A stretch of 64,000 bases of DNA, taken from contig OZ244999.1 of NCBI GenBank assembly GCA_965223265.1, positions 4,224,001-4,288,000 of the forward strand, in the 5' to 3' direction. The DNA comes from Planctomycetota bacterium. GTDB lineage: Bacteria; Planctomycetota; UBA8108; SXIK01. A program made the translations under genes and the position numbers. Below the pieces are notes generated by a model. It did no database searches. It was given only the letters and a program-made list of their open reading frames with translations, and was not told the origin of the DNA. Every line of letters starts with the position of its first letter. Positions within the stretch are counted from its first letter, which is position 1. Below, one piece after another: positions 4,003 through 35,440 of this stretch.

Positions 4003-4047
4003 CGCGATTCCATCGTCATCGGTCAGCAGTCATCAGTCAGCCATCGT

Positions 4048-6549: not shown

Positions 6550-6625
6550 GCGACTCTCTCCTTTCTAAGCGCCATTGTCAGCGATTGGAGAGATTGGATC
6601 AACCGGATCGAGATTCGATGTCGGA
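6517..6625 (-). promoter_or_regulatory. Repeated sigma70-like promoter/RBS module, copy 1
   Basis: Minus strand TTGATC (6602-6597), 17 nt spacer, GACAAT (6579-6574), then AAAGGAGAGAG and GTG start; homologous to 7925-8045 and 39549-39690. Confidence 0.6.
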
Positions 6626-6771
6626 ATCTTCAGCTAGCTCGAGCTTGGGAAGTCACATGACATGATTCTGTGGTCGACAGATGAACAGAGATCCACGGAT
6701 CTCCGAGCCGGTCGGATCCGGTCAAGAACCGGAGCTTTCGCGAGAACGGAACCTGAAACTCGTACGTCTTC

Positions 6772-7859: not shown

Positions 7860-7924
7860 CGACAAGTCCCTTGTTCTTCGGGGTTCACGTCGGTTTACCC
7901 ACTCCGGTGACACTTCTGCCGGGG

Positions 7925-8045
7925 GTCACGACCAGACACCACCGGCCCTCTCCTTGGTTTTCGATTGTCGGCGATCGGAGAGGTCGGATCAACGGGGTCG
8001 ACATTCGAGCTTGGACTCTCTGGTTGAGGAAGCCACGATCTTCCC
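7925..8045 (-). promoter_or_regulatory. Repeated sigma70-like promoter/RBS module, copy 2
   Basis: Minus strand TTGATC (7992-7987), 17 nt spacer, GACAAT (7969-7964), AAGGAGAG; shares the identical stretch GATCGGAGAGGTCGGATCAACGGGGTCGA with copy 3. Confidence 0.6.
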
Positions 8046-8456
8046 GGATTTGTCAATCGTACAAGCGTCGGAGTGACGGCTAGTGGGATTCGTCAGGCTC
8101 GGGAAGCCTCAGAGGGTCCCCTTCGGTGGGCGTAGAGATGTGCTTGTTTCCGCCCAGGCCGTCAACCCACTTGCGCCTGCCCACGTTCCTGGCTTTGCCT
8201 CGGCACCGGTTTGCCTTGACACCGGCGCGTGGCATGGGATGATGCCGCGACGACGAAGAGATTCTGTCGGCTTCTTCACGCGTTCGGCAAGACTTGCCCG
8301 ATCGTTTCAGCACTATTCTTGTTCACGGTTTTTCCTCAGTCATCACGCCGTCAACGCTGACCGCTTCGGCTGTGTGGGACAAAATGGAAAGACCCACGTT
8401 GTCTTCAAATCGCAAACTTTTGTAGAGCTCTTTTCACGGTAATCTCAACCCAGACC

Positions 8457-10987: not shown

Positions 10988-13900
10988 TCAGCCGTGGAGC
11001 TTGAAGCAGCACACACTCGGCGAGGTGTCTCCAGTCACGACGACGACCCCGTCCGGTGAAGCCCCGAGTGCTTCGATGCGGCCGTCCAACGTGGTGTGCG
11101 CGATCGCCTTGGCCAAATCCAGATCCCAGACGATGAGTTGACCGTCGTCGGACACGGAGACCATTCGACGTCCGCAAGAGAGGGCGCGCAGAGCGCCGAC
11201 CCGGTCCGTGTGCCCGTGCAGTGTCGCGACGAGCTGGCCGGTCCTCACTTCCCACACGCGTAGCGCATGGTCGGCGTCGATTGGGGGGCTGGTCTCATCG
11301 GCCCCCATGCGCAGGATCGACGCGTCGCCTGCAGAGACCACGCGACGGCCGTCCGCCGCGAAGGCGACGTGCCGGACCCAACATCGATGGCCCTCTAACG
11401 TGTACAGTCGCGCTCCTCGATCCAGGTCCCAGATGATTGCTGTCTCGTCGTCCGAACCCGTCACGGCGCATCGCCCATCAGCCGCCGTCGCCAGCGAGAA
11501 TGACTCCTTGCGATGTCCACGAAGCTCCCACGTCCGCTGGCCCGTCTCCATTTCGAAGACCTCGAGCCGGGACTCGCGATCCGAGGCTTCGGCGCCAGAA
11601 TCTTGGCACGACACAGCGGTCGAGGCCACGATCCGACCATCGCTCGTGAGATCTAGGGCCGTGACGTAGACTTCGACTCTCCACAGCTCCACCCCCGCAT
11701 CGAGGTCCCACACGCGCAGCGTGCCATCGTTCGACGCAGACACGACGCGCCGACCGGACGACGAGACCGCGAGACAATCCACCCGCGCAGAGTGTCCCTC
11801 AAGAGACCAGATCTCTTCACCGGTTCGGAGATCCCATACCTTCAAGCACTCGTCCACCGAGGCGGAGATCAAGCGCTCTCCGTCTGGTGTGATCACGACG
11901 GTAGTGACGCAGCCTTCGTGACCGCGGAGCAGGTGGAGCGAGTCTCCAGACTCGACCTCCCACACGATGACCGTGCCATCCGTCGATGCCGAAGCGACGA
12001 GGGCCTGATCCGGTGAGACTACCACGCTGCGAACGTCCCCCGTGTGACCGACCGCTTCGGGCCCACCTGGCTCTCGTTCGGAAGACGGCTGCTCCCTAAC
12101 CCGCTTGTTCGTGCTCTCTGCCAAGTGCCAGACTTTCAACGAGCGGTCGAGACCCCCGGAGATCGCCCGAGCGCCGTCGGTCGTGACTGCGACCGAGGAC
12201 ACGATCGAAGCGTGACCGAACAGCGTCTGGATCTGGGCACCCGTCTCGACGTCCCATAGCCGCAACGTGTTATCCATCGAGCAGGTGATCACGGTTCGAT
12301 CCTGCGCCACGAACACGGCGTCCCTGACCGGAAAGGTGTGTCCGTCGAAGATCACGCCAGTCTCCTGCTCAAGATCGAATGCGACAACGCGCGTAGCGCC
12401 CACCACTCCGACGGCATACCGTCCGTCCCTCGACAGGGCGAGAGAGCCCAGCTGAACTGAGCCAAGCGGGATCGTGGACACCGCGGTCGAGGTTCCTGGC
12501 TCCCACAAGACGAGCTGGTTGTCGCCGCCCACCGAGGCGACTCGCTCCGCGGCATGGGACGCTGAGACCGCGCGCACTCCACCGGAATGCCCCGGAAGTG
12601 TTCGAATCGCTCTCGACCTCAGATCCCAGACCTGCACGCCGCCATCAGCCAGGCCGGCAATCGCGTACCAGCCATCTGGCGAAATGCCGCTGACGCGAAC
12701 CTCATGTTCTGCACTTCCCAGCCGGTCCAGCTCGATACCCCTAGGGATGTCCCACAGACGAAGCGTGCCGTCTTCGGAGTGCGACACCAGTCGCTCGCCA
12801 TCCGGCAAGACGTGCACGCTCGAGACTGGTCCCTCGTGCCCCGTGAGTACTGCCGTCTGGCGCTTCGCCAAGAGATTCCAGACTCGTATCGTCTTGTCCT
12901 CGGAGCCCGACACGCCCCTCCGACCGTCCGGAGTCACGTCGACCGACAACACCTTTGCCTCGTGTCCCTCCAGGGTCGCCAACGGCTCGCCGCTCTCGAT
13001 ATCCCACAGCCGTACCGTCCGATCTTCGGACCCGGACAAGACAAACTGCCCATCGCGCGTCACACAGACCGTGTTGACGTCCCCGGTATGCCCGGTGAGG
13101 GTGCGTTCGAGATCCGCCGACTCTAGGCTTCCGCGCCAGCGCAGACGAAGTGTTGGGAGTGCCAGCTCTGAAAGTCTGGCCGCGGCCACGGTGGTCACGT
13201 TATAGGCGTTCTGTGTGATCGCGCGATTGTGGATCTGCTGGGCGAAATAGACGGGGTCCTTCTCTGCATCCCATCGCCGCAAATTGTGGGCTTCGCGGTC
13301 GAGTGTGCGGAGAACGGGCTGAAGCCGGACCCTCAACGTCGGCTCGGCCTGCACTACGGCCTTCACGTCCCATGCGAGCGTGTAGACGCCCAGCTTCCCG
13401 CACTTCGACTCTAGGAACGCCATGCTCGTCAAGGCAGCGGCCAGATTCTCCCATTGATTCATCGCGGCGAGATGGGCCGGCAGATGGCGAAGCGCGTAGT
13501 CGGGCAGCCCGTGCGGATCTTTCTCGAACCTGTCCCAGATCCAATCCGCCAGGCACTCGTGACCTTTCTCCGCCGGCGAGTGGTAGCGACCGGCCTTGGC
13601 CTCGTCGAACTCTGAGTCCCACCCGGTGAGCCACTCTGCGAGCGACCCGTGGAAGAAAGCGTAGGTGCCGCGGGCCGGAGGCAGGAAAGCCTCGAGCCGC
13701 TTGAGACATGGCGTCAGTTCATCGTCGAGATGCAGTCCAGTTATCTCTGCGAGCTGCTTTCGGTTGAGTGGCTCGCGTGCCGCCACGATCACAGACAGGA
13801 CGTGGCGGCTCGGCTCGAAATCTACCGTTCCAAACAAGCGGTCGAAGAAAATCAGGTAGAGGCCCTCCATGCGTGGAGGTAGCTCGGCCAGCTGCTGCCA

Positions 13901-15190
13901 GCTGATCTGACCCGCTTCGAGCGCGTCGAGGGCGGTGACCGTAAAGAGGAAGTTGACACCCTGGTGCTCCCCTTCGCTTAGAACTCCGAGCGCAAGGGTC
14001 GCGAGTTCATCAGCGGACTTGTTGCTGGTGACGCAGATCTCGGCGAGCGATGTCTCGCGTAGGCGAGCGAGTGCGTAGCTGTGAACGTCGTCGACGTTGC
14101 GGGGATCCGTGGCCTCGATCTCGGCGTGACCCAGGCCACGCAGCCGGGCGCGGATCGTCGACGTCGGCCGCGCCGTGGCCACGACCCTCAACCACGCGGG
14201 CAGGCGGTCGAGCCGTGATGCGAGCACGTCGAAGATCCCAGGAGACCCCTCGTAGAGCAGCGATTCGTCGAGGGCGTCGATCAGGAGATACGACGTGGCG
14301 TCGACCGGCTTGGGGATGCTATGCAACGGCGCCAGGACGCCATTTTCGAATGCGCTTCCGGGATCCCGGGCGACGTTCTCGTCGTCGAGCACCTCACGCA
14401 ACCGCGGATCCGCAAGCGCCGCTGCATATGCTTCGATGCGACCTGCGAGCATGGCCGCCAAGCTCTGGACTAATCGTCCGGGCTCGAGGCTCTCAGGGAT
14501 GTCCCATTGGCAGCAATGGTACGCCAGAACCTGCTCGTCGGGATTCGTCATGACGAGCTGGGCCACCAGTGCCGACTTGCCGCTGCCGGGACCGCCGGTG
14601 ATGAGGAGCAGCGGCAAGCGCTCGCGATGGCGCCACGCGTCGATCGCATCGAACAACCACTCGCGGCCCGTGAAACGCCGTCGCCTGGAGGCCAGGAACG
14701 GCTCGGAGTCCCGCGGCATCGGCAGGTCGACGAAGGCTCTCTCAGCTGCTTCGCCGCGGGCCGCGGCCTCGATCGCCCCGGTGAGCCTGGTCACCGCGCG
14801 ACTGTATCGTTCGTCGAAGTCCTCCCACTGCGTGAGGTCTACCTGCTGCACTCGATAGACCAGCAGCGGCGGGACACAGGGAATCGTCATCGCCGGAACG
14901 ATCGGAACGTTCTCCCCGCGCGCGAAGGCGATCTCATCGAGGCAGACGCTGTCTGTATCGCTGGTACTTCCCGGCAGGCCTCGACGCCGGACGGCGTGGG
15001 GACTTAGGAGGAGGACGACCACATCGGATGTGCGAATCCCTTGCTCGATCTCGCCATCCCAGCCCCAGCCGACACGGATCTGCTCGAGGTCTTGCCAGAC
15101 CGTGAAGCCAGCAGCGTTCAAATCAGCGTGCAGCCGTTCCGCGAGTGGTTGCGTATCGCCTCGGCCGTAGCTCAGAAAGACCTTCACCAT
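10988..15190 (-). CDS. TIR - NACHT/STAND NTPase - WD40 repeat protein
   Basis: TIR (VFLSYGR...VWQD...CLDEIAFA), Walker A GGPGSGKS, Walker B LLIDALDE, helical domain, more than ten GH...WD repeats. Confidence 0.9.
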   Translation of the reverse strand: MVKVFLSYGRGDTQPLAERLHADLNAAGFTVWQDLEQIRVGWGWDGEIEQGIRTSDVVVLLLSPHAVRRRGLPGSTSDTDSVCLDEIAFARGENVPIVPAMTIPCVPPLLVYRVQQVDLTQWEDFDERYSRAVTRLTGAIEAAARGEAAERAFVDLPMPRDSEPFLASRRRRFTGREWLFDAIDAWRHRERLPLLLITGGPGSGKSALVAQLVMTNPDEQVLAYHCCQWDIPESLEPGRLVQSLAAMLAGRIEAYAAALADPRLREVLDDENVARDPGSAFENGVLAPLHSIPKPVDATSYLLIDALDESLLYEGSPGIFDVLASRLDRLPAWLRVVATARPTSTIRARLRGLGHAEIEATDPRNVDDVHSYALARLRETSLAEICVTSNKSADELATLALGVLSEGEHQGVNFLFTVTALDALEAGQISWQQLAELPPRMEGLYLIFFDRLFGTVDFEPSRHVLSVIVAAREPLNRKQLAEITGLHLDDELTPCLKRLEAFLPPARGTYAFFHGSLAEWLTGWDSEFDEAKAGRYHSPAEKGHECLADWIWDRFEKDPHGLPDYALRHLPAHLAAMNQWENLAAALTSMAFLESKCGKLGVYTLAWDVKAVVQAEPTLRVRLQPVLRTLDREAHNLRRWDAEKDPVYFAQQIHNRAITQNAYNVTTVAAARLSELALPTLRLRWRGSLESADLERTLTGHTGDVNTVCVTRDGQFVLSGSEDRTVRLWDIESGEPLATLEGHEAKVLSVDVTPDGRRGVSGSEDKTIRVWNLLAKRQTAVLTGHEGPVSSVHVLPDGERLVSHSEDGTLRLWDIPRGIELDRLGSAEHEVRVSGISPDGWYAIAGLADGGVQVWDLRSRAIRTLPGHSGGVRAVSASHAAERVASVGGDNQLVLWEPGTSTAVSTIPLGSVQLGSLALSRDGRYAVGVVGATRVVAFDLEQETGVIFDGHTFPVRDAVFVAQDRTVITCSMDNTLRLWDVETGAQIQTLFGHASIVSSVAVTTDGARAISGGLDRSLKVWHLAESTNKRVREQPSSEREPGGPEAVGHTGDVRSVVVSPDQALVASASTDGTVIVWEVESGDSLHLLRGHEGCVTTVVITPDGERLISASVDECLKVWDLRTGEEIWSLEGHSARVDCLAVSSSGRRVVSASNDGTLRVWDLDAGVELWRVEVYVTALDLTSDGRIVASTAVSCQDSGAEASDRESRLEVFEMETGQRTWELRGHRKESFSLATAADGRCAVTGSDDETAIIWDLDRGARLYTLEGHRCWVRHVAFAADGRRVVSAGDASILRMGADETSPPIDADHALRVWEVRTGQLVATLHGHTDRVGALRALSCGRRMVSVSDDGQLIVWDLDLAKAIAHTTLDGRIEALGASPDGVVVVTGDTSPSVCCFKLHG

Positions 15191-15312
15191 CGGTGAGCCT
15201 CTGGCATTCATCCCTGCGTAGGGCCCATTCACCTCGTTGCAGCGCGACGATCGAGAATGAACATTCTACCCGCGAGCGACAGCGCAAGTCCATGAACGCA
15301 TAGACGCCGACG

Positions 15313-15799: not shown

Positions 15800-16540
15800 T
15801 CAGGCATGGATTCCTCGCTCTTCGAGTTGCCTGAGAGCCTCGATTGCTTCCGGACGACGAAGGCCATGCTTCAGCCAGTTTCTTTTCCGGAGATCCGCCT
15901 CACCCCACACGCGAGTCTCTTCGGTAACAAAGCCGCCTTCCCTAGCGTGTGCTCGGGAAACGCAGAGCATTCGCTGGAGCTCGCCTCGGAAGAGTGGGCC
16001 CACAAGCGCAAGAAAGGCTTCCGCCGCTGGTGGCTCGTTTGCGAATCGAAGAACGGTCCGGCGACACCACTCCCAAGAGAGCTGGCGGCCGCTCTTGGCA
16101 GTCTTCTTCAAATAGGCCGACGGCGACCGAATCGGGTTTCTCGTGCCCTTTGCTTCACAGACGATGTAGCGTTCAGTGTTCATGTCCTGTGCAATGATGT
16201 CAGGACCGTGAATGCGGTATGTAAGGTCATTCAGAAAAACCGGACGCATCTGTTCTGTCGTTTGAATCCACTCGAAAGCACCGCAAACTCCCGCGTGCTC
16301 CAATGTTGGACTAAGAACCTCGCCGGTCTTCGTCGTTGGTGTGCGGTGATTGAACGTCCTTGGATAGAGGCCAAGCCAACCTGATGGGCGAGTCGTTGAG
16401 GAGTGTGCGTATGCGACCCGCCACTCAGCCGCGTTGAGCAGTGCGGCGTACAGATACGCGGCAATGGGGTTATCCTCGGTGAGCGGCGCCAGGACAGCTA
16501 ACTGTTCGTCCAACTCCGCTGCTGTGTCCGGAAATCTCAT
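15800..16540 (-). CDS. Restriction-endonuclease-fold (PD-(D/E)xK) nuclease-like protein
   Basis: HGPDIIA...YIVCEAKG...GRQLSWEWC motif series seen in toxin-type nucleases. Confidence 0.6.
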   Translation of the reverse strand: MRFPDTAAELDEQLAVLAPLTEDNPIAAYLYAALLNAAEWRVAYAHSSTTRPSGWLGLYPRTFNHRTPTTKTGEVLSPTLEHAGVCGAFEWIQTTEQMRPVFLNDLTYRIHGPDIIAQDMNTERYIVCEAKGTRNPIRSPSAYLKKTAKSGRQLSWEWCRRTVLRFANEPPAAEAFLALVGPLFRGELQRMLCVSRAHAREGGFVTEETRVWGEADLRKRNWLKHGLRRPEAIEALRQLEERGIHA

Positions 16541-16790
16541 GATTTTGGTGGCTGTACTCTGCGTCCTTGGTTGGATCCGACGAACACGTTGCCCCTGCAC
16601 CTAACCTCAATCCGGCTGGATTCCTTCTACTGACGCATGCCATCGGCGACGATATGCAGGATGAGCGCACGTCTAGGCGCAGCCAACCTAGTCACACACC
16701 TGGTAGCTGCTCGAAGCAGGCTTCTACGTTTTCGCCCGCGAACTGTCGACTCCTCCGGCCAATGGGAGACGCTGGTGCAGGCGGGACAAA

Positions 16791-17040
16791 TCGAGAAACC
16801 GCAAGTAATCGCCGGTTTCTGATCCGAGTCTCCGGCGTCCGTGAAACATGTGTTTCATTTGGAGGCCCCCGGAAGGCCGAAGAAATCTTTGGTACGGGCT
16901 GGACGGCCGAGGTGTCTTTCGTCGCAGAACTCCGCGCACCCCCGCGGACGGGCGCCCCCGGTCTTCAAATCCCCAAACACTGCCGTTGATCTCCCGACTT
17001 CTGATCTGAACTTCAGCGCTTTGCGAAACACGTGTTTTCA
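16791..17040 (+). repeat. Island non-coding repeat family, copy C (5' segment)
   Basis: AGAAACC...GGTTTCT (16794-16820), TGAAACATGTGTTTCA (16842-16857), CTTCAAATCC...CCGTTGATCT, second palindrome variant GAAACACGTGTTTT (17025-17038). Confidence 0.8.
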
Positions 17041-18963
17041 TGGTTGGGGGGCCCGTGACTTCGATTGCAGCTGAGCCCTCTGGCTATCGACAGCAGCTCC
17101 GGATTCGGTCCGACTTCGAAAATAGCTGTCGATGCGCGCGATCGCCGCGAGATTCGAAAGCGTTTCGATCTCTCCATGGATGTCGGATATTTGTTTTCGC
17201 GACTCGTACGTCGACAAGCACCTATTGTGTATTCTCGACCAAAGTTTTTCTATCTCCTCGATGATCGACTGATGGTCGAGATCTCGACCGGGAGAATGCA
17301 GAACAATAAGATTACTTTGGATACGCCCGCCTTTCACACTCTGTGTATCGACGAGCGCTTTCCATCCGAGCCGGTCAAAGAGATCTCGAAGATCTTCGCC
17401 TTGGTACGGCACGGCTATTTTCTCTGGCTCGACCAGAGGGTAGAGCTCCTGAACCACTACAACGCCACCCTCTCCCAAGATCCTTGTCCACGCGAGGATC
17501 ATTTCTGCGAACTCAACCAGTTCGAGCTCATGCACGACATTTGAAACTACAACCACGTCGTATGGACCCTTCACCTGCTCCAGTCGTCGTTCCTCAAGCA
17601 CGCGAGCCGCCGCTCCACCGTCTTTCGCGACCGCTTGAAGCTCCAGCTGGAGTTCAGTATCTACGTCAAAGAACTCCCAGGCACAACCTGCTCTCAGGGG
17701 AGTCGGACGATTCTTCTGAAGTTCGAGAAACGTCCGTCCACGCCCTGCGCCGATGTCTAGGATCTTAGTGTTTCCTTGGTCACGCGAGGGGAGCTGGGCG
17801 GAGAGCACCTTGCCCAATTGTTCGGACTGTTTGTCTTGCGAGGGTCTGTCCGACACCGGGACCGGCTCAGCTGAAAACAAACCGACTAACGCCTCTGTTA
17901 GGCGTTGATTCGCTGCCGCAGTGGTCAGTTCAGCCAAAGCAAGGAGCTGTTGATCACGCGCATGAAAAAGATTGTAAGCAGAGAGAATTCGCGTGTACTC
18001 AGACGACAGGGCATACACTTTACGATTGGGCGCGGGAGCCTGGCCGGTTGGACTCGGGACTCTTTCCTGCCACGGCTGGCTGGGCATGCTTTCGACTTCG
18101 AAGTAGTGAAGAGAGTCGACATACGTAGAGAAGAGCACGTGTGGGTGATGAGACGCGATCAGAGTCTGGGGGACGTGCTCTTTGATGTGCTCCAGAAGAA
18201 TCGTCATGTACTCGGGGTGAAAGTGGTTTTCGATTTCATCGAGAATGAGAATCGGCTTCACGTCGAACTCAAGGATCGCGAGGGCAGCGAACAACGCCTT
18301 TTGGCCAGCACTCCACTTCGCGGCTGGAAAGGTTCTTCGAGGATCGTAACGCAGCACAGGTTCGACTTTGTTCCCCTTGCCAAGTCGAACACCGAGAGAG
18401 CCGCCGACGGCTTTCTGAAAGCGGCGCACGAACACCGCGCGCTGCGACGATGGATAGTCGTATCCCGCCGCCAACGTGGAAATCAACGCTTCGCTCCGAT
18501 ATTGCGCGTCCTTCTCCCAGCGATCGACGTCCAGATCTGAGAATTGATCTTCGAGTAGTGATCGGACGACACCTCGCGTAATGCGCTGAAATGCCGGCTT
18601 GCCGTTCTTTTGATCGCCGCCGTCCTTGGATATATCCAGCTGGTGAAACTGTCCCTTATACTGCGTAATGTCGTCGATATAGATGATCTCCGGCAGCTCG
18701 TCAGGTCCGCTGGCGAGTAGAACCTCGACGTTCTGATCGCTGATATGCTCGCCGGTGTATTTGCCATTTCGCTTCAGCGACCAGGACTTACGAATCGCTG
18801 CGTTAACTCCTTTGATGACGTACGATTTGCCCGTCCCGTTCCTTCCACAGAAGGCGTTTACCCTGTTCCAGTCTCCCTCGCAGGTCGGATAGGAAAGGTC
18901 TATCTTGCCCGATTCGAGACCCTTCGGTGCACCAAGCTTGATAGTCTTTATGAAGTTCGACAT
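17038..18963 (-). CDS. ABC-type (AAA_15/AAA_21-like) ATPase fused to a class I SAM-dependent methyltransferase
   Basis: Walker A GRNGTGKS, signature WSAGQK, Walker B/D-loop LILDEIENHFHP, H-switch ASHHP; C-terminal ILDIGAGRG and YDVVVVSNVVHEL. Confidence 0.8.
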   Translation of the reverse strand: MSNFIKTIKLGAPKGLESGKIDLSYPTCEGDWNRVNAFCGRNGTGKSYVIKGVNAAIRKSWSLKRNGKYTGEHISDQNVEVLLASGPDELPEIIYIDDITQYKGQFHQLDISKDGGDQKNGKPAFQRITRGVVRSLLEDQFSDLDVDRWEKDAQYRSEALISTLAAGYDYPSSQRAVFVRRFQKAVGGSLGVRLGKGNKVEPVLRYDPRRTFPAAKWSAGQKALFAALAILEFDVKPILILDEIENHFHPEYMTILLEHIKEHVPQTLIASHHPHVLFSTYVDSLHYFEVESMPSQPWQERVPSPTGQAPAPNRKVYALSSEYTRILSAYNLFHARDQQLLALAELTTAAANQRLTEALVGLFSAEPVPVSDRPSQDKQSEQLGKVLSAQLPSRDQGNTKILDIGAGRGRTFLELQKNRPTPLRAGCAWEFFDVDTELQLELQAVAKDGGAAARVLEERRLEQVKGPYDVVVVSNVVHELELVEFAEMILAWTRILGEGGVVVVQELYPLVEPEKIAVPYQGEDLRDLFDRLGWKALVDTQSVKGGRIQSNLIVLHSPGRDLDHQSIIEEIEKLWSRIHNRCLSTYESRKQISDIHGEIETLSNLAAIARIDSYFRSRTESGAAVDSQRAQLQSKSRAPQP

Positions 18964-19838: not shown

Positions 19839-21473
19839 TTGAGCGAGCTTGTCGACTACTACAGCTTGTTCCGCGCGCCGGCGTACAACTCGCATCACCC
19901 GAAACCCGCGGGCGCGAAGAACGTCGTCGGCCAGTTCGACCCGATGAACTGCATCTTGTACCTCGACGGCGACGTTTCAGATGCGCTCGACGCGAGCGAC
20001 GGGAGCCCGGAATTCGAGGTGGAGGATGCCGGGAGCCCCATCCTCCTTCCGTTCTCGACGTTTCTTCACGAAATCATTCACTGGTGGCAACATGTCGGGA
20101 CGACGTCGGGGCTGTTCTACGGATTGAGCATCCCCACGCAGGCGCTGTCGACGGCCAAGTACTTGTCCGAGTTCGGGGCCGAACTTCCCAAACCGCTCAC
20201 CCACAGCGTGACGAGCTCCCTGCCGTCCGAACATCCCGCCTTGCTGTCTGTGCTGCGATGGAGCGAGCTCGAGCTCGGCGCCTCTCTTCTGTTCGACCCG
20301 ATGACGACTTCCTACACGCTTCGGTCCCGGAGACGGTTCTATGAATCGCTCGGCCACGCGCTCCTCTTGACGCACATCAGCACGATGAGCGCGGTCTCAT
20401 CGATTCTGGACCCTGGTCGAAGGGGTCTCCCCGATCCGGATCCGTGGATCGACCTCTACGATCGATTCGTGAAGGATGAACGGCCGTGTTTCACTCCGAG
20501 GGAGATCATCGAGTTCGCCATCGGCCTGCGCGAGCTCGCAGAAGGGCAGGCGCGTGTCTCCGAAATCCAGTATCGCTCCCTCGCCTATGAAACGATGACA
20601 TGGTCGGAGGTCAAGGCGCGTGGGCTGCTCGCGGGTGTCTACGCGACAGCGTTCGAGGAGTTTCTCCGCCTCACGGGATTCGATGAGCCCTCCCACCCGA
20701 TCGACGCGTCGGTCAATCTCTTCCTTCTCTTGTGCGACATCTCATTGAATCCGGCGGAGGGATACGCCGACGACATCGCCGACGACGGAAAGTTCGTTTA
20801 CCGCGTTCATCCTGGCATTCGGTTCCTGAAGCTCTGCGATCTCGCCAAGGGCAACCAAGGACTTCTTGCGCGGCTGAAGACGCTCTCGGCCGAGAGCTAC
20901 GATGTCGTATCCGAAGCCCTTTGCGGAGATGCGGAATGGCCGACTCCGAGAGAAATCGGGCGCCGCGCTCTTTTGCGCCTCGAGCACATGTCGAACTGGC
21001 AGGAGGTTCAAGCGCAACGGGAAGCGGGAGACTACGGCTCTCGGGATGCGCCCATCCGCTTCTACTTCGCCGAGCATCACGCGTTTCTGAAGACGAAGGT
21101 GGAGCTGCCCCATCTCTTCTGCTGGCCGGCGTCCTTCTTGACCTCGAAGGCAGAGAGTGACCCGGCTGAGGCTGAAGCTGTTCAGGAAGTGCTCTCGTGG
21201 CACATGCCACCGTTCCTTGCGAGCTCGCTCGAGTCGGGTGTGGACTCCGTCAACTTGTCGCGGATGGCTCCCGATCGGCGAAGTCAGTTCGTGAGCGACT
21301 ACTTCGCGACCCAGGTGCTGTACGACCTCGTGCGGCAATGGATCAGCAAGCCCGGTCGATTCGAGTTCGCGTACCGCTGGAAGCCCGCGCTTTCGGGCGA
21401 GGAGCAGAGCATCCTGCGCCAGCGCTTCGACACGAGCCTCGGTATCCGTCTGGCGGACATCCGTCCCGCGTGA
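19839..21473 (+). CDS. HEXXH (gluzincin-like) metallopeptidase-domain protein
   Basis: FLHEIIHWWQH and a downstream LAEGQA candidate third ligand; TTG start. Confidence 0.65.
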   Translation: MSELVDYYSLFRAPAYNSHHPKPAGAKNVVGQFDPMNCILYLDGDVSDALDASDGSPEFEVEDAGSPILLPFSTFLHEIIHWWQHVGTTSGLFYGLSIPTQALSTAKYLSEFGAELPKPLTHSVTSSLPSEHPALLSVLRWSELELGASLLFDPMTTSYTLRSRRRFYESLGHALLLTHISTMSAVSSILDPGRRGLPDPDPWIDLYDRFVKDERPCFTPREIIEFAIGLRELAEGQARVSEIQYRSLAYETMTWSEVKARGLLAGVYATAFEEFLRLTGFDEPSHPIDASVNLFLLLCDISLNPAEGYADDIADDGKFVYRVHPGIRFLKLCDLAKGNQGLLARLKTLSAESYDVVSEALCGDAEWPTPREIGRRALLRLEHMSNWQEVQAQREAGDYGSRDAPIRFYFAEHHAFLKTKVELPHLFCWPASFLTSKAESDPAEAEAVQEVLSWHMPPFLASSLESGVDSVNLSRMAPDRRSQFVSDYFATQVLYDLVRQWISKPGRFEFAYRWKPALSGEEQSILRQRFDTSLGIRLADIRPA

Positions 21474-21662: not shown

Positions 21663-23570
21663 CTACTTGCGACGGTTCCGCTTCCGGGACTCGCGAGCGA
21701 GTTTCCTTCTCCTCTTATCAGCGTCCTTCTTCTTGCTTGTGCCCTTTCTAGTTCCGGCAGAACGCTCTCGATTGCGCGTCGCCTCCGGGTAACGGCTCGA
21801 CACAGAAGGGTCTGAGGATTCCCAAGACCTGGCGAGCCTGTTCCAATCGACAGCCTGCCTGGGTCCAATATTTGACATGATCTGGGTGGGGGCGTGTCGG
21901 GCACGGACCGCAGCAATGGACTCCTCGTCGAGATCGAGAACCGGGAAACTCACCTTGGCATCTGCCAGCGTCATGCTCTTGGTCAGCCATCCTCTGGTTG
22001 TTTCTTGAACTATCTCGTCTAGGAACTGAGGGATGCTCCGGACGATTCTACGGATTCCAGAACCGGCGGGATTCCTGTCTAATGCTCCGCGCAGGAGGGG
22101 GAGATTGGCCGCGATGGTCGTCCCCACTTCGTGCCAGACCTTCCATGATCCGATTCCACCCCTCAACAGGAGCATGTCAATGACTTCGACCCCTTCCACA
22201 GCGCGTTTCAGCACGTTCGAGAGCTCTCGGTCTCGTGCCGTGTCCGAAAGGTCCCGAAAGGCTCGAAGTTGCCGCAGCCCTTCTCGAGTCCGCGACTCCA
22301 TCGCTTGGACCATTCGAGCGCCTTGTGCTGGGATGGCGCCCTTGGCCTGCACGTGCAACGCCGTATTCGTAGTCGGCTCGTAGGCAAGTACGTCCATTTC
22401 GCCACAAGACCAGCGGATGTTCCGCTCTACCGTCAGACCATCTATCTCGCTGAGCAACGAGATCGCTTCGTCGATGAGGGCAGGTTCGAGGTGGGAGGAG
22501 ACCTCGTCGTGAAAGCGGCTCGGGTCGAGTTTGTTCAGTGCGTAGGCAATGTTCCGTGAGGACAACATACGTTGAACCACGTCGGGGTTAAACATCACCG
22601 AGGTCGGTGTCGTCTTCCATATTGGCGGAAAGAATCCGTCGCCGGCGCCACTTGGGATCGTGGATTCTGGGTCCAGCTCGTAGAGACGTAGCATGCTATC
22701 AATAAGGTCGAACTCGAGCCCGGTAAGCGCTTGAATGAGGCCGTGAACAAAGCTCGACTTCAGATGCACTGCGGTCCACTCAAGCATTTCTCCAAACGCG
22801 CTTTGGTCTTGCACAGGGCGGAGAGAGCCCCGTGCCTTCCGCCCAAACCCATCGGCAAGAGCTAAGCAGGAGTCCGCGATCGCAAACCACGCCCTCCGAA
22901 GGGCGTTGAACTGCTCTACGTTTCCACCGATTGCCTCTTGGAAGCCGGCGGCGGTGATGATCGGCGCTTCTACCGCGCACTCTCCGATTTCCTGGTATCT
23001 AATGGCAACCGTCTTCGCGAAAAGGTCCCCTCGCTGCTTGCCTACTTGGAAGTCGATTATCTGGTTCGGGATTGGTGCCGGGCGAATGTAGAACGGTTTC
23101 GCGACCTCCGTCATGACGATGTCTCGTGCTTCAAGGAGGGAGACTTCGTCGTTTGCATGCTTCAGTGCGAACCCCGTCCGTCGACTACCCGATACTGTGT
23201 AGTAGTCGCGATGCACCTCTGGCATGAGCTCGCAAAAGTGACCGTATTGGATCAAAGTCTGAATTTCGAGCAGGAGCGAAGGGTCGTCTGAGAACGGTGA
23301 AAACGCGTCCAACGCGTCCGCGCCGATTTCTTCGCGTGGACATCGGAGCAGGAGATCAACAAGGTAAGAGAGTCGACTGATGAGAGCTTGACCGGCGTCC
23401 TGGCGAGGCAAGGTCCCCTTCTTGTCCAAGCGATCACCGTGGAACAGGCTGTCGACCATGCTGTACAGTCCCGACAAGACTGTTCTCAGTGGAAGGCGGA
23501 GTACCCGGAGATCCCCGACAAGTTCGTCAAGCTCCCGCTCGAAGAGACCGAGTGCTTTAGCTGATTCCAC
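21663..23570 (-). CDS. Large helical protein with a C-terminal PD-(D/E)xK-type nuclease domain
   Basis: GEMDVLAY...HVQAKG...EGLRQL motif; AGGAGG RBS; basic tail KRRRKLARESRKRNRRK. Confidence 0.65.
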   Translation of the reverse strand: MESAKALGLFERELDELVGDLRVLRLPLRTVLSGLYSMVDSLFHGDRLDKKGTLPRQDAGQALISRLSYLVDLLLRCPREEIGADALDAFSPFSDDPSLLLEIQTLIQYGHFCELMPEVHRDYYTVSGSRRTGFALKHANDEVSLLEARDIVMTEVAKPFYIRPAPIPNQIIDFQVGKQRGDLFAKTVAIRYQEIGECAVEAPIITAAGFQEAIGGNVEQFNALRRAWFAIADSCLALADGFGRKARGSLRPVQDQSAFGEMLEWTAVHLKSSFVHGLIQALTGLEFDLIDSMLRLYELDPESTIPSGAGDGFFPPIWKTTPTSVMFNPDVVQRMLSSRNIAYALNKLDPSRFHDEVSSHLEPALIDEAISLLSEIDGLTVERNIRWSCGEMDVLAYEPTTNTALHVQAKGAIPAQGARMVQAMESRTREGLRQLRAFRDLSDTARDRELSNVLKRAVEGVEVIDMLLLRGGIGSWKVWHEVGTTIAANLPLLRGALDRNPAGSGIRRIVRSIPQFLDEIVQETTRGWLTKSMTLADAKVSFPVLDLDEESIAAVRARHAPTQIMSNIGPRQAVDWNRLARSWESSDPSVSSRYPEATRNRERSAGTRKGTSKKKDADKRRRKLARESRKRNRRK

Positions 23571-23828: not shown

Positions 23829-24701
23829 TTAAAGAATGCTCTGTACTCGCTGCACCTCTTGCTTGAGTTCAGAGGAGGTCTGAAACACAGGTTGGTCATC
23901 TCCGCTCAACACCGCGTCGATCAGCGATGCGAGCGGATCCGGTACATCGCTACGCCGCGTCCCGATGGGTACAGGATCGTTGTATGCAACTGCCGCGTCT
24001 GGCGTCATTGTGCTTGGGAATTCCCGTGGAAGTGAGTCGGTGAGAAGGAAGTACAGCACTGCAGCGGCAGCCCACACGTCCACCTCAGGACCAGCATATT
24101 TGTAGTCGCGCAACTGCTTTCGGCAAATAAACGCGTACGTTCCGCCGCAGTCTCCAGTAACGGTCATACCGCTCAGGCCAGCGGCTTCGAACGCCTTCGA
24201 CAGTCCGAAATCAGCAATCTTGGCAGTTCGGGATGTCCCGCTGCCGGAAAACAGTACGTTCGCCGGCTTTAGATCTCGGTGAACGATTCCTTGGTACGTA
24301 GAGACTGTTCCGTCGGCGAGGCGAGTCGTGACTGTCGCGCCCTCGAGGTACTCCAGACCTTCAAGAACGTCTAGAACTACCGACAATGCCTCATCCACGG
24401 ATAGCGGCGCGATCGCGCGGGCGTCGCCTCCGTCGCAGAATTCCATCCAGTAGCAAAGCTCGGAGCTTTCCGTCGAAATACCTTCTATCGCGACTACGTT
24501 CTTGTGCGAAACGTCGGACAGTAGCTGCATCTCGCGAAGAAAAAGTTGCTTGGAGAAATCATTCGTAGTCAAAGTGGGGAGAATACGCTTTAGAGCCAGC
24601 AGTCGACGTGAGCCTAGCTCTCGTATTAGATGTACCTCTCCCATACCGTCCGCCTTGATCGGCTGAACGTACTCGAATCCGTCGGGTATCCAAACGGTCA
24701 T
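23829..24701 (-). CDS. Hanks-type Ser/Thr protein kinase (catalytic domain only)
   Basis: GMGEVHL, LALK, HRDLKPAN, DFG, DVWA motifs; ATGA overlap with the upstream TPR gene. Confidence 0.92.
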   Translation of the reverse strand: MTVWIPDGFEYVQPIKADGMGEVHLIRELGSRRLLALKRILPTLTTNDFSKQLFLREMQLLSDVSHKNVVAIEGISTESSELCYWMEFCDGGDARAIAPLSVDEALSVVLDVLEGLEYLEGATVTTRLADGTVSTYQGIVHRDLKPANVLFSGSGTSRTAKIADFGLSKAFEAAGLSGMTVTGDCGGTYAFICRKQLRDYKYAGPEVDVWAAAAVLYFLLTDSLPREFPSTMTPDAAVAYNDPVPIGTRRSDVPDPLASLIDAVLSGDDQPVFQTSSELKQEVQRVQSIL

Positions 24702-25933
24702 TGACCTTCCCGTCTATCCTCAGTGGCTTTCGCATCGGCTTCTTCTAACCGTTCCAGGAAACGTTCGAGCTTCGGAAAATCGTCCCGTAGGCCGTCAGTT
24801 TTCGCTCGAGCGATCTGATCCCGTGCGGCTTCAACGTCGGCGCGTGCTGCGCTTGGGTCACCCGCAAGAAAGCGGTTAGCCGCTCGAGCGCCAAGCGCGC
24901 CGGCCAGTTTCCCACGCATCAGAGCTCGCCCATCAACGTCGACCAGAAAAGTGAAGACACTGACTGCTCGGTCAAGTGGAAGCATCGCCTTCTCAGTGGC
25001 ACCCAAATCGCGATACGCGCAGCCGGCCCAGTAGTAGGATAGGGCTAACGCGAAGCGATATTCTCGACGGCCCTGTCCGCCAACGAGCCCTTCATACAGT
25101 TTCGACGCAACGAGCGCATGTTTGAGCGCGGCCCTGTAGTCGCCGGTGACGTGCCGTCGTTCTGACTTGCTGCGGTGAGCTTGTGCCAGGAGTGCGCGGA
25201 GGTGCACTTTCGGAGTCGCTCCAACGACCGTCTCCACCGACTCGATTGCTCGGTCGACGAGACGTTCAGCCTTCTCCGTTTTCCGGAGATCGCGCAAGCA
25301 TTGCGCGCGCACCAGCCGGGCATTCGCAACATCTTCGAGTAGGTCGAGCGAATCGGGTAATTCACGAAGTCCGCGCAACGGCACTACGATGGCGTAAAAA
25401 GTTTCCGTCAAAGCGTCCTCGATGCGCTTGACTGCGACCAACGACTGCGCTCTCACAAGATGGGCCTTCGAGCGAGCTCGTCGGTCATCGAGGCTCAGCC
25501 TTCCGACGTTCGGAAGTTCGCGGAGTATCTCCGTACAGACGCTGCTCGATTCTTCGAATCGAGACAGGGCGCGAAGTACGACAGCTTCGTTAATTCCCAT
25601 CTGAATCCCGCGCAGTCGAAGTTTTTCTTCGCTCGCGCCCTCGCTCTCGAAGAGTCGCAGCAGAAACTCTCTGGCGGACCGCAAGTCGCCCAGAGCCTCC
25701 TCGCTTGGGCCAAACCAAACAGTCCGGTAGAGCGCTTGATGCTCGACGGCCCAGGCGTAGAAACGACGGCTTGGGCTACCGGAGTCTCTCCTTTCGGCTT
25801 CGAGCATATCGCGCATCCGAATCGTCGCTGAAAGCGCTGACTCGATCGCCCCGGCGGCTTCAAACGCGAGCGCCATGTTCATTAGTGCCTGTGCGCGTAC
25901 CAGCCGAGCATCGACGTTCGGTATGGGCGGCAT
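24698..25933 (-). CDS. TPR-like repeat protein
   Basis: Repeated Ala/Leu-rich helical pairs (LALSYYWAGCAYRDLG...A); translationally coupled to the kinase; start uncertain. Confidence 0.65.
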   Translation of the reverse strand: MPPIPNVDARLVRAQALMNMALAFEAAGAIESALSATIRMRDMLEAERRDSGSPSRRFYAWAVEHQALYRTVWFGPSEEALGDLRSAREFLLRLFESEGASEEKLRLRGIQMGINEAVVLRALSRFEESSSVCTEILRELPNVGRLSLDDRRARSKAHLVRAQSLVAVKRIEDALTETFYAIVVPLRGLRELPDSLDLLEDVANARLVRAQCLRDLRKTEKAERLVDRAIESVETVVGATPKVHLRALLAQAHRSKSERRHVTGDYRAALKHALVASKLYEGLVGGQGRREYRFALALSYYWAGCAYRDLGATEKAMLPLDRAVSVFTFLVDVDGRALMRGKLAGALGARAANRFLAGDPSAARADVEAARDQIARAKTDGLRDDFPKLERFLERLEEADAKATEDRREGQ

Positions 25934-26612
25934 GGGAGAATTCACGAGTCGGAAATACGCACGCGCGTCTACGAGCGCCCTCGCTCGCCCGGTCACTTTC
26001 TGAGTCCGGGGATTCTGGACCAACGAGCAGTGTTCCGAGCCCAGTCGGGATTCCACGAACTCTACCGGAGAGCCGCATCTCTTGGTCTTGCCGTGGTCTT
26101 GAGCGAGAGACCGAATTCGGTGTCCGCGCGCTCCGGTGTGAGCTTCGCCACGTTCTCAGCTACCTCTGCGAGCCGCGGGACGGCGGCGAAATCGATCTTT
26201 CCCTCGTCAGTCTCCTTCCTTCTCGATCCCCGCCTTCTCCAGGTAGCGGTCGATTTCGCCGCGCCGGGTGGGTCCCCAGGCAGAGAAGCGGATCGTCAGG
26301 CCTCTTCGGTCGGCTTCGTGCTAGAGCTTTCCGAGGAGATGTTCGGGGACCGGCTGGAACGCGTCACGCCGGCCCTGGGTTCCCACCACCCAAGCCTCTG
26401 TCTTTTCTTGCGGACGGTCGGGGGCCGCCCATTGCGGCCGCGTTGCGTCTCCCTCCACTCGAGACTCGAGATAGTCGTTTCTGACCTCGGTGAACTCCTC
26501 AATGACGACGCGCTCGGCGTAACTCCCTACGTATCGGGGGTTTCCTTGACGCTCGCCTTGAAGGCCGAGCGGAGTGCTTGCGGCACGGCGTACGACGTGT
26601 CACCTTGGGACC

Positions 26613-32971: not shown

Positions 32972-35440
32972 GTGGAGCAGCGGGATCGCGAGCACATTCT
33001 CAGAGAAATCGCTGAAGAGGAGTCTCGATTGACGAGCCTCGCAGAGGAGAGCGCGAGGATTCGATCGCGCCTCACGGCTCTCAGGGTCGAGCTGGAGTCA
33101 GGCGATTCGGGACCACAGCTTTCTTCTGAGCCTGGACTCTCAGCCTCGGACGCCTCGAAATCTCAGTTGACGCCGACGGAGAAGGTGACGCTCTTCCGAA
33201 GCCTTTTCCGCGGCCGGGACGACGTGTACCCGAAGCTCTGGACGAACGCCAAGACGGGGAGAACGGGATACGCGCCGGCATGTTCGAATGAGTGGGTACG
33301 TGGCGTCTGCGACAAACCACGTGTCAAGTGCGGAGACTGTCCGAACCAGGCATTCATCCCTGTGACCGAGCAGATTCTCCTGGAGCATCTTCAAGGACGG
33401 CATGTAGTCGGTGTCTATCCGATGCTCCAGGACGAGACCTGTTGGTTCCTGGCAGCAGATTTCGATAAGAGTGCTTGGAAGGAAGACGTTCAAGCTTTCG
33501 TCGAGACGTGCCAGGCACACCGTGTGCCGGCCTCCGTGGAACGCTCCAGATCAGGCAATGGAGCACACGTCTGGATCTTCTTCACTCATCCCGTCGCTGC
33601 GAACGTCGCGCGCAAGATGGGCTGCTACCTCATCACCGAGACGATGGCACGGCGTCACGAGCTCAGCATGAAGTCTTACGATCGCCTTTTTCCGAATCAG
33701 GACACGATGCCGCGTGGAGGATTCGGAAACCTCATTGCGCTCCCGTTGCAGCATGAACCGCGAAGGCTCGGCAACACGGTCTTCTTGGACGATCAGCTCG
33801 AGTCCCTTTCGGATCAGTGGGCGTACCTGAACTCCGTTGACCGGATAACACCGACGGCCGTCGAGGAAATCGCTCGGGAGGCCACGCGAAAGGGCCAGGT
33901 GATAGGCGTCAAGTTGGCCGAATCCGGTGAAGAGGAGGACGCAGCCCCCTGGACGCGTAGTCCGTCAGGTCGCTCGCGGATGGTCGAGATCACGGAACCG
34001 ATCCCCGAGACCATCCGTGGGGTTCTTGCGCAGCGTGTCTTTGTGGAGAAGACGGGACTCCCATCCCCACTTCTCAATCAATTGAAACGTCTGGCAGCGT
34101 TTCAGAATCCGGAGTTCTACAAGAAACAGAGCATGCGGCTGTCAACGGCAATGACACCGCGTGTCATCAACTGCGCTGAAGACCTTCCTGTGCATGTCGC
34201 ACTGCCACGGGGATGCGTTCCCGAACTCAAGGACCTGCTCGGCGGTCTCGGCAGCGAGTTGGCCGTCGACGACCAGAGGACGCACGATGCACCGCTGGAA
34301 CTGAACTTTCGTGGACAGTTGACCGCCGTCCAGCAGAAGGCCGCCGAAGCGCTACTTGAGCACGACATCGGTGTCTTCGTTGCGCCGCCAGGAATAGGGA
34401 AGACGGTCCTCGGGACGTATCTCGTAGCGGAACGTGGCTGTAGCACCCTGATTCTGGTTCACCGGCGTCCATTGCTGGACCAGTGGGTCGCGCAGTTGTC
34501 GATGTTTCTCGGCATCGAGCCCAAGGAAATCGGTCGAATCGGCGGAGGTAAGCGAAAGCCAAACGCGCTGCTCGACGTCGCGATGATTCAAAGCGTCGTC
34601 AGAAAGGGAGAAGTAGAGGACCTCGTCGCCGACTACGGCCATGTCATCGTGGACGAGTGTCACCACGTTCCCGCAGTCTCCTTCGAGCGTGTACTCGCCG
34701 AAGTCAAAGCGCGTTACGTCACCGGCCTGACGGCCACTCCGCAGCGCAGAGACGGCCATCACCCGATCTCCAACATGCAGCTGGGTCCGGTTCGATTCTC
34801 TGTAGATCCCAAGAGCCAGGCAGCCCGTCGTCCCTTCGAACACCGCCTGATCACTCGCGAGACCGTCTTCAACGCGTCGTCCCTCCCAACGGACGCGCCC
34901 ATACAGGACCTGTACCGTGCTCTTGCGGGCGACAAGAGCCGTAACAATCTCATCATCGATGACGTGATCTCGGCTCTCGAAGAGGGTCGCTCGCCGATCC
35001 TTCTGACAGAGCGAAAGGATCACCTCGAGTTTCTGGCGGACAAGCTCCGCGCTTTTGCCCGTCACATGATTGTTCTCCAAGGAGGCATGAGTGCGAAGGA
35101 GCGAAAACACGTGGAAGCGCAGCTCGAGGAGATCCCTGACCATGAGGAGCGGCTTCTCCTCGCGACCGGACGCTACATCGGCGAGGGCTTCGACGATGCG
35201 CGGCTTGATACTCTCTTTCTCGCGATGCCGGTGTCGTGGAAGGGAACACTCGTCCAGTACACAGGACGACTTCACCGGCTGCACCCGGACAAAACGGAAG
35301 TGCGAATCTTCGACTACGTCGACCGGGGCGTTCCGATGTTGGAGCGGATGTTCCAGAAGAGACTGCGGGGTTACCGCGCGATCGGCTACACGGCGGATGG
35401 AGGATCCGCAGACGATGAAGAGTTCGAAGGCGAAACGTAG
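32972..35440 (+). CDS. Archaeo-eukaryotic primase-like (TOTE-type) domain fused to an SF2 helicase
   Basis: LFRGRDDVY, FLAADFD, ERSRSGNGAHVWIFF, GNLIALPLQ; helicase motifs APPGIGKT, DECHH, LTAT, EGFD, QYTGRLHR. Confidence 0.88.
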   Translation: MEQRDREHILREIAEEESRLTSLAEESARIRSRLTALRVELESGDSGPQLSSEPGLSASDASKSQLTPTEKVTLFRSLFRGRDDVYPKLWTNAKTGRTGYAPACSNEWVRGVCDKPRVKCGDCPNQAFIPVTEQILLEHLQGRHVVGVYPMLQDETCWFLAADFDKSAWKEDVQAFVETCQAHRVPASVERSRSGNGAHVWIFFTHPVAANVARKMGCYLITETMARRHELSMKSYDRLFPNQDTMPRGGFGNLIALPLQHEPRRLGNTVFLDDQLESLSDQWAYLNSVDRITPTAVEEIAREATRKGQVIGVKLAESGEEEDAAPWTRSPSGRSRMVEITEPIPETIRGVLAQRVFVEKTGLPSPLLNQLKRLAAFQNPEFYKKQSMRLSTAMTPRVINCAEDLPVHVALPRGCVPELKDLLGGLGSELAVDDQRTHDAPLELNFRGQLTAVQQKAAEALLEHDIGVFVAPPGIGKTVLGTYLVAERGCSTLILVHRRPLLDQWVAQLSMFLGIEPKEIGRIGGGKRKPNALLDVAMIQSVVRKGEVEDLVADYGHVIVDECHHVPAVSFERVLAEVKARYVTGLTATPQRRDGHHPISNMQLGPVRFSVDPKSQAARRPFEHRLITRETVFNASSLPTDAPIQDLYRALAGDKSRNNLIIDDVISALEEGRSPILLTERKDHLEFLADKLRAFARHMIVLQGGMSAKERKHVEAQLEEIPDHEERLLLATGRYIGEGFDDARLDTLFLAMPVSWKGTLVQYTGRLHRLHPDKTEVRIFDYVDRGVPMLERMFQKRLRGYRAIGYTADGGSADDEEFEGET

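Follow-up and report, generated by a model that had tools for sequence, protein, structure and literature searches.

A 64,000 nt stretch of DNA from a Planctomycetota bacterium (GenBank assembly GCA_965223265.1, contig OZ244999.1, positions 4,224,001–4,288,000; the whole stretch is called the window below) carries a gene (17038..18963, minus strand) for a 641 amino acid (aa) protein in which an ATP-binding cassette (ABC) ATPase is fused to a predicted methyltransferase. What might such a protein do? It had been proposed from the DNA sequence that this single gene is a candidate new defence system, in which an ATPase akin to known infection sensors controls a methyltransferase whose target is RNA, protein or a small molecule (the original prediction), and that interpretation is partly supported by the results given here. 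The favoured reading, with about an even chance of being right, is that of a self-contained, horizontally mobile, single-protein conflict or defence module, most likely directed against phages or plasmids, with the ATPase gating a methyltransferase for one of these three kinds of target.

The gene has an ATG start and its stop codon lies at 17038–17040. The start codon is supported by homologues that share this N-terminal peptide. The GC content is 0.544, compared with 0.601 for the whole window, and scans for promoters and terminators stayed at the level of shuffled sequence (3 promoter-like sites against 2.3 expected, and 6 terminator-like sites against 8.2). In an AlphaFold model of the whole protein (mean pLDDT 89.4), and by alignment, four parts can be distinguished, all encoded on the minus strand: an ATPase head of the ABC/structural maintenance of chromosomes (SMC) type (approximately residues 1–300, 18064..18963), a linker delimited by the modelled secondary structure and by invariant columns (residues 301–375, 17839..18063), a predicted class I S-adenosylmethionine (SAM) methyltransferase domain (residues 376–560, 17284..17838), and a C-terminal pair of long helices (residues 561–641, 17041..17283), modelled at 564–588 and 595–635.

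Motif positions were located by regular expression. The N-terminal half shows, in canonical order, a Walker A motif (GRNGTGKS, residues 40–47), an ABC signature (WSAGQ, 217–221), a Walker B motif (ILILDE, 238–243) and an H-loop (SHH, 271–273, within a stretch reaching 275), and matches Pfam AAA_21 above its gathering threshold (46.2 bits, cut-off 27, E = 8.3e-12), with weaker matches to SMC_N and AAA_15. Motif order and profile score together assign the protein to the ABC/SMC-type ATPase superfamily. A complete ABC motif set had been claimed, and these four motifs bear that out, but no invariant Q-loop glutamine could be identified between Walker A and the signature in an alignment of 52 sequences. 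The best PADLOC match of this half is AriA (2.2e-14), followed by weaker matches to PtuA, AbiLi, HEC-01A and NsnB, all of which are limited to this half; Foldseek searches with the whole-protein model returned SMC3 and other SMC heads, and PtuA of retron/Septu complexes. Consistent with the kinship to defence sensors that had been suggested, the ATPase is a member of the AAA_21/SMC-like group that includes the ATPases of PARIS, Septu/retrons, AbiL, Gabija and OLD. Labels of ABC-F, CcmA and RecF were rejected, as all scored far below their cut-offs; the ABC-F ribosome-protection model NF000355, with a cut-off of 380 bits, scored 20.4, and the protein has a single ABC domain where ABC-F proteins have two in tandem.

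The linker contains a long helix (335–363 in the model) and a family motif, LF(D/H)xxDxQLL, in which F333 and D337 are invariant. In the C-terminal helical pair, W575 and Y586 are near-invariant across the alignment; no structural match was found for these ~80 residues, the fold-search matches covering residues 1–195 of the domain model.

Between these two parts lies what is predicted to be a class I (Rossmann-fold) SAM methyltransferase domain, expected to bind SAM. It carries SAM motif I (LDIGAGRG, residues 402–409, or LDIGAGRGR, 402–410), an acidic residue after strand 2 (D433), a DxQ motif (377–379), the sequence NVVHE (475–479) and the stretch ELYPLVEPEKIAVPY (506–520). Pfam Methyltransf_23, Methyltransf_12 and Methyltransf_25 match residues 381–507, all below their cut-offs (24.2 bits versus 27, 23.5 versus 30, and 20.1 versus 27, respectively). 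A profile built from 25 sequences of the domain matches solved class I methyltransferases in the PDB (best E = 2.3e-7), and the model of the domain (pLDDT 89.3, pTM 0.86) was aligned by VIA-align to dozens of SAM methyltransferases with Z scores of 15–18 and root-mean-square deviations of 2.7–3.3 Å over 165–186 residues. The class I assignment, first made from the DIGAGRG and SNVVHEL stretches, is upheld by motif I, D433 and these comparisons. A predicted complex of two copies of the domain scored 0.38, against a mark of 0.42.

In its modelled fold the domain comes nearest to methyltransferases that act on small molecules or on protein N termini. Foldseek gave NTMT1/NRMT2, ChlM, BezA and TleD, with TehB among the small-molecule fold neighbours, and VIA-align gave MfnG, TmtA, RdmB, SgvM, MtfA and CurJ. 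No DNA methyltransferase was present among the fold matches listed by the two programs (about 90 entries), nor among the PDB matches of the sequence profile. The lack of DNA methyltransferases among the fold matches fits with the missing DPPY-type motif: as had been noticed from the start, the 641-aa protein has no [DNS]PP[YFWH] motif by regular expression, nor any PP dipeptide, and NVVHE occupies the position, after strand 4, that is equivalent to the (D/N/S)PP(Y/F/W) motif of DNA methylases. A DNA amino-methyltransferase (N6-adenine or N4-cytosine) was rejected on the missing motif. This likeness of fold does not name the substrate.

If the fusion were an accident of one genome, relatives with the same plan would not be expected. 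A phmmer search of 1.84 billion cluster representatives gave 257 matches at E ≤ 1e-3, of which 91 reach E ≤ 1e-30; these 91 are mostly 600–650 aa long, match from end to end and share the fusion, which is therefore real and conserved, as the original prediction supposed. A word-based search found two relatives only. The family comprises ~90 clusters at 50% identity. Conservation was counted over the relatives P0001–P0113, using only those sequences that cover a given site. All 86 keep an intact Walker A, 99 of 100 the DE of Walker B, and all 102 the H-loop histidine; motif I (GxGxG) is kept in 94 of 102, and N475 and H478 in 101 of 101. In the 52-sequence alignment the invariant columns coincide with the catalytic ones: in the ATPase they are G40, N42, G45, K46, W217, S218, G220, D242, E243, H272, P274 and H275, and in the methyltransferase domain G405, N475 and H478. 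E506, P509 and E514, which lie beyond the SAM pocket, are invariant or nearly so in the core family. Family-specific motifs are DEIENHxHP, THHPH, LFDxxDxQLL, PDxQT and ELYPLLxPEKxAVPY, the last of these placed after strand 5 of the methyltransferase domain. Since the catalytic motifs are near-invariant across these relatives, purifying selection acts on both halves as enzymes, and both look active.

More distant relatives (P0114–P0151) have the same two-domain plan and retain DQ, DGGGR and NHEE, and at least five ESM Atlas clusters of 81–169 members combine AAA_21 with Methyltransf_23. To judge from these sequences, the joining of AAA_21 to a methyltransferase is old and fairly widespread, and the subfamily in the window is a rare branch of it. 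The architecture is less exceptional than had been suggested. Family members are mostly unnamed in their source annotation (nine of ten, the other being auto-named EcfA2). A literature search found no description of the AAA_21–methyltransferase fusion, although the ABC ATPase classification of Krishnan et al. (2020, Nucleic Acids Research) may contain one, and no paper in which AAA_21 occurs together with Methyltransf_23 or Methyltransf_12. In one distant ABC–methyltransferase relative (L083), a gene for an AAA_15/AAA_21/DUF2813 ATPase lies directly upstream (621–2300 and 2718–4562, both plus strand), and the pair may be a two-ATPase module.

The strongest indirect argument for a role in defence comes from sister proteins in which the output has been swapped. 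In Mastigocoleus (locus L016), a 949-aa protein (L016:7944–10793, plus strand) has the ATPase and linker motif in common with the window protein (39% identity over residues 1–349, E = 5e-30) and ends in a diadenylate cyclase (DAC) domain (1.3e-8) instead of the methyltransferase. Its gene is preceded by one for an Uma2/PDC-S03 nuclease and followed by one for a Cap15 two-transmembrane (2TM) effector (L016:11171–11809, plus strand; PF18153 1.2e-33, PADLOC 3e-74), and the locus resembles a signalling defence system in which an ATPase gates a DAC. A recent preprint reports that DAC proteins encoded in defence islands produce the cyclic dinucleotides by which Cap15-like effectors are controlled (bioRxiv 10.64898/2026.08.10.743927); ATPase–DAC fusions are not mentioned in that text, where the words ATPase, ABC, fused and fusion are absent. 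Further ABC–DAC proteins were found (P0096, P0098 and P0106), as well as one relative with an appended metallophosphoesterase (P0107). A second cyanobacterial genome encodes an 804-aa fusion of a CHAT protease to the same DAC module as in Mastigocoleus (L111:2290–4704, minus strand; CHAT 1.6e-17, DAC 2.1e-12), followed by a gene for a SLATT_4 2TM effector (L111:1693–2229, minus strand) and with an Uma2 gene upstream. Immune sensors typically exchange effectors in this way while the NTPase chassis stays the same.

One protein may stand midway between the forms with a methyltransferase output and those with a cyclase output. P0007 (980 aa) joins the ABC ATPase to a methyltransferase domain with a decayed motif I (LDFESGRGG; NCLHS) and then to a DAC domain. 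That it keeps the degraded domain and has a DAC output added, and that in triple fusions the domain stands between the ATPase and the added outputs, is what might be expected if the methyltransferase-like domain were a sensor of SAM or of a SAM-derived ligand, for example detecting phage SAM-degrading enzymes, with the response made by the ATPase or by an unlinked partner. The retention of GxGxG in the great majority of relatives argues against a pure sensor, as do N475, H478, E506, P509 and E514, whose conservation beyond the SAM pocket is that expected for catalysis, and no conserved partner is available to act as the effector. SAM sensing is considered very unlikely as the function of the domain.

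Other relatives are extended at the opposite end. Eight long forms of 939–991 aa (L011:6897–9872, L039:5864–8833, P0036, P0048, P0054, P0059, P0064 and P0079) have an N-terminal extension of ~350 aa and intact methyltransferase motifs. In six of them the extension weakly matches DUF429, a family with the fold of RNase H-like nucleases (best in P0054, 5.5e-8; L011, 7.6e-5; L039, 6.4e-3); the extensions of P0064 and P0079 have no DUF429 match at E ≤ 1e-3. A DUF429-like region ahead of the ATPase raises the alternative of a DNA-directed module, in which an SMC- or DndD-like ATPase scans DNA, the methyltransferase gives it an unusual mark, and the long forms add restriction, giving a single-chain enzyme similar to a restriction-modification system. 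The SMC3 and SMC heads among the best Foldseek matches of the whole protein act on DNA, and DndD is described as an ABC ATPase that scans DNA for modification (PMC10853773). What speaks against marking of DNA is the catalytic domain itself, with neither a (D/N/S)PP(Y/F/W) motif nor a DNA methyltransferase among its listed fold matches or its profile matches; in addition, no target-recognition domain was detected and the DUF429 matches are weak. We consider this alternative quite unlikely.

How is the gene distributed, and what lies beside it? The 14 full-length loci in species-representative genomes come from Bacteroidota, Gamma- and Betaproteobacteria, Acidobacteriota, Bacillota and FCPU426, and two further copies are on plasmids. 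Together with the window and 12 metagenome loci (those with usable flanks, chosen from 80), they make 29 contexts, among which L005/L006, L033/L037 and L034/L056 are near-duplicate pairs. All-against-all BLASTP of open reading frames (ORFs) found no conserved neighbour gene around 32 loci; what recurred were near-identical lineage pairs, integrases in four loci and type IV secretion system (T4SS) coupling proteins in three. The gene is thus without a conserved partner, in agreement with its description as a single-gene unit, and no conserved transport or metabolic operon emerged, which had been named as an outcome that would tell against defence.

Mobile-element genes (integrase, transposase, relaxase, T4SS or Tn7) occur within ~5 kb in 14 of the 29 contexts. 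One copy (L003) lies within Tn7-like TnsB and TniQ genes, five have integrases nearby (L007, L015, L040, L044 and L054), and five have conjugation genes nearby (L012, L015, L028, L038 and L050); in L038 and L050 the family gene is situated between a DUF3363 relaxase-type gene and a T4SS coupling protein gene. L008 adjoins DUF932, L014 has a PDDEXK_2 transposase nearby, L047 a replication-relaxation protein, and L027 is on a plasmid. The gene was absent from all 40 relatives of the planctomycete that were searched (same family, order or class). The gene is mobile, and its distribution is extremely patchy.

Defence-type genes are found nearby in 11 of the 29 contexts. The Allorhizobium plasmid carries a nucleotidyltransferase, HNH, SIR2, DarT and an ABC-three-component system; L039 has DarT-Macro and a BilD-like E1; L056 has TIR/PDC-S66, PDC-S26 and REase-ARP; L054 an Olokun-like protein; L046 an nSTAND1; and L009 Vsr, a restriction-enzyme-like ATPase and a control protein. 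These, with the window itself, are the clearest cases. Such a neighbourhood is suggestive, not overwhelming. The Pseudohalocynthiibacter plasmid (L028) has, just upstream of the family gene (4552–8816), genes for an 8-oxoguanine DNA glycosylase, a PfkB kinase, a 7-cyano-7-deazaguanine synthase and a VUT queuosine-salvage protein, which could be a deazaguanine-related modification or defence cluster.

These locations also suit a protein that serves the mobile element itself, its ATP-gated methyltransferase modifying a host or element factor for establishment, maintenance, competition between elements or counter-defence. The 14 contexts on or beside integrative, conjugative or transposable elements, the position between relaxase-type and coupling protein genes, the Tn7-like and DUF932 settings and the two plasmid copies are all as such cargo would have them. 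Location cannot separate cargo from defence, because sites of this kind typically carry defence systems as well. The ATPase, however, is of the group found in defence sensors, the sister arrangement, DAC followed by Cap15, is of defence type, and no copy was found in phages (IMG/VR and GenBank phages); a role for the benefit of the element is regarded as unlikely.

A mobile gene with an ATPase of this group might belong to a system already described. Both AriA and the N-terminal half are soluble ABC ATPases of the AAA_21 type, and AriA is its best PADLOC match. In PARIS the ATPase is reported to serve as a scaffold that senses the trigger and controls the effector (PMC11464382). AriA is, however, partnered with the TOPRIM nuclease AriB (DUF4435), where the window protein has a fused methyltransferase as the candidate effector. 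The AriA match says little about subfamily because the model concerned, at 304 positions, is exactly as long as the generic AAA_21 profile of Pfam. No AriB or TOPRIM match was found by PADLOC or Pfam among 12 neighbouring ORFs, and membership of PARIS was rejected, the match being generic and without an adjacent AriB. Septu was rejected likewise: PtuA models match weakly (1e-8 and weaker), with Foldseek matches to PtuA of the retron Ec78/Ec83 and retron I-A complexes, but there is no PtuB or HNH match among the neighbouring ORFs by PADLOC or Pfam, and the window protein differs in having no HNH partner, retron reverse transcriptase or non-coding RNA, and in its output domain.

In OLD, Gabija GajA, PrrC and RloC, one polypeptide joins an ABC ATPase to its effector, a TOPRIM or anticodon nuclease. 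The likeness is that of an ABC ATPase head in one chain with the enzyme that it presumably regulates, and more distant ABC–methyltransferase relatives match the GajA and Old models of PADLOC. Unlike these proteins, the 641-aa form has no nuclease domain, and GajA/OLD membership was rejected on a C-terminal half that is a predicted methyltransferase, without TOPRIM in Pfam at E ≤ 0.01. DAC-based defence signalling (DS-2, Panoptoo) is approached by the Mastigocoleus sister, which keeps the family ATPase and linker, followed by DAC and a Cap15-type 2TM effector; the window protein differs in having neither a DAC domain nor a 2TM effector as neighbour.

MADS was also considered. Its models match both halves weakly (mad3 1.9e-10 to the ATPase half, mad2 1.4e-6 to the methyltransferase half), and the mad3 model also matches an ordinary ABC exporter at 5e-30. 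A PD-T4-6-like kinase encoded 4.9 kb away matches mad6 (2.1e-37), but its score of 73.9 bits stays under the 460 that NCBIfam sets for MAD6. MADS (mad1-8) is described as an eight-gene operon with an N6 DNA methyltransferase, MAD2, and with MAD6-8 mandatory in the detection model (bioRxiv 10.1101/2023.03.30.534895). No mad7 or mad8 match was found in the neighbourhood by PADLOC, the kinase falls below the MAD6 cut-off and the protein has no DNA-methylase motif; membership of MADS was rejected. Relative to PARIS, Septu/retrons and Gabija/OLD, the effector chemistry would be new, and the family is conserved, a candidate for defence, and unstudied.

From the architecture, the intact catalytic motifs, the mobility and the exchange of outputs we infer a defence role, in which the N-terminal soluble ABC/SMC-type head would be both sensor and switch, responding to a cue from the invader. 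Binding and hydrolysis of ATP would probably proceed through head-to-head engagement, as in other ABC ATPases, and the conserved linker helix would relay this engagement and so license the C-terminal methyltransferase. The enzyme would then modify a target other than DNA (RNA, protein or a small metabolite) that is common to very different hosts or invaders, and methylation of that target would stop replication of the invader or growth of the host. In a more specific form, which is put forward only tentatively, the family would provide the first immune sensor with a non-DNA methylation output, the ATPase unleashing the methyltransferase on some universal target (tRNA, rRNA, a translation factor, a component of the nucleotide pool or a phage protein) and shutting down replication, with sensor and output in one polypeptide, while in the sisters the same chassis would feed cyclic-dinucleotide signalling.

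Several points weigh against a defence module. We know of no validated defence system with a non-DNA methyltransferase as effector, which makes the prior low, and no PADLOC model covers the fused protein, here or in nine other family members. The link between DAC and Cap15 comes from one lineage, as L016, L051 and L109 have the same sequence. Nine of the 29 contexts (L002, L005, L006, L010, L011, L013, L029, L037 and L052) have neither mobile-element nor defence genes. Absence from the relatives is weak evidence, because the 40 relatives are distant; the flanking phosphoenolpyruvate carboxykinase was itself undetected in four related genomes at E ≤ 1e-50, and a flanking 433-aa protein likewise. 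No copy was present in IMG/VR viral contigs (84 pattern matches, none confirmed) or in GenBank phages.

The remaining points against concern metabolism. The nearest folds are those of biosynthetic small-molecule methyltransferases, which would suit detoxification or metabolism just as well. Conservation of the methyltransferase pocket in different phyla might reflect a housekeeping substrate. One family gene (L004) follows an ABC exporter gene at a distance of 132 bp, and the L005/L006 pair is placed among glutathione synthetase, deaminase and GNAT genes. Read together with the L011 context, these features might indicate a stress-regulated or resistance enzyme, carrying out ATP-gated methylation of rRNA, tRNA, a translation factor or a toxic small molecule to the benefit of the cell and independently of any invader, in the manner of Erm/Cfr or of TehB. 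Nearness in fold to TehB, NTMT1 and many natural-product enzymes, and a pocket that would suit a universal substrate, are in its favour; yet the loci show no conserved biosynthetic or resistance neighbourhood, the resemblance to ABC-F is a generic signature match with one nucleotide-binding domain and a score far below the cut-off, and so patchy a distribution does not favour it. Such an enzyme seems rather improbable.

The conflict or defence module remains the favoured explanation, and its consequences would reach beyond this locus. Known ABC-ATPase defence systems end in nucleases, so a non-DNA methyltransferase output, if true, would add an effector chemistry to bacterial immunity and would offer a compact, one-gene, ATP-switched methylation tool. 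The series of outputs (methyltransferase, degraded methyltransferase with DAC, DAC with Cap15) would show immune sensors exchanging their effectors. Even if the gene has no part in defence, it would still encode an ATP-gated methyltransferase that awaits characterisation and travels on conjugative elements. Its family has few enough members for study and is present in culturable hosts (Pseudoalteromonas, Paucibacter, Mucilaginibacter and Allorhizobium).

In the window, the gene sits in a stretch rich in conflict-type genes. At a distance of 1.8 kb, a minus-strand gene (10988..15232) encodes a protein of 1414 aa. Its N-terminal region is TIR-like (PADLOC SAVED_TIR 9.5e-11, Thoeris ThcB4 7.3e-9) and it has ~12 WD40 repeats; by these matches it looks like a STAND/NLR-type immune protein. 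The PD-T4-6-like Ser/Thr kinase gene mentioned above (23829..24701, minus strand; 4.3e-45) overlaps by 4 bases the gene upstream of it, for a 452-aa tetratricopeptide repeat (TPR) protein (24698..26056, minus strand), and the two may be a two-gene module. An 822-aa TOTE-type primase-helicase is encoded 14 kb away (32972..35440, plus strand), with an archaeo-eukaryotic primase domain (1.5e-100) and a ResIII/DEAD helicase.

Interspersed with these are two convergent genes for conserved hypothetical proteins. One of them (544 aa; 19839..21473, plus strand) has an HEIIH (HExxH) motif and look-alikes in unnamed Atlas clusters; the other (635 aa; 21663..23570, minus strand) has a weak match to YraN-like nucleases and 86 relatives, one of which is named a Holliday junction resolvase-like endonuclease by a source. 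A 266-aa ORF (15800..16600, minus strand), 438 bp downstream of the fusion gene, contains a D...CEAKG stretch reminiscent of PD-(D/E)xK nucleases. It has no family match and a single homologue of 50% identity in 5.8 billion proteins, and is probably a real gene; as a conserved operon partner it was rejected, having no counterpart beside other family members. The 105-aa and 134-aa ORFs that overlap the ends of the fusion gene have no family match, look spurious and were also rejected as partners. No tRNA gene is present in the window, and the Pfam families PSCyt1, PSCyt2, PSD1 and DUF1501 found in it are suggestive of a planctomycete.

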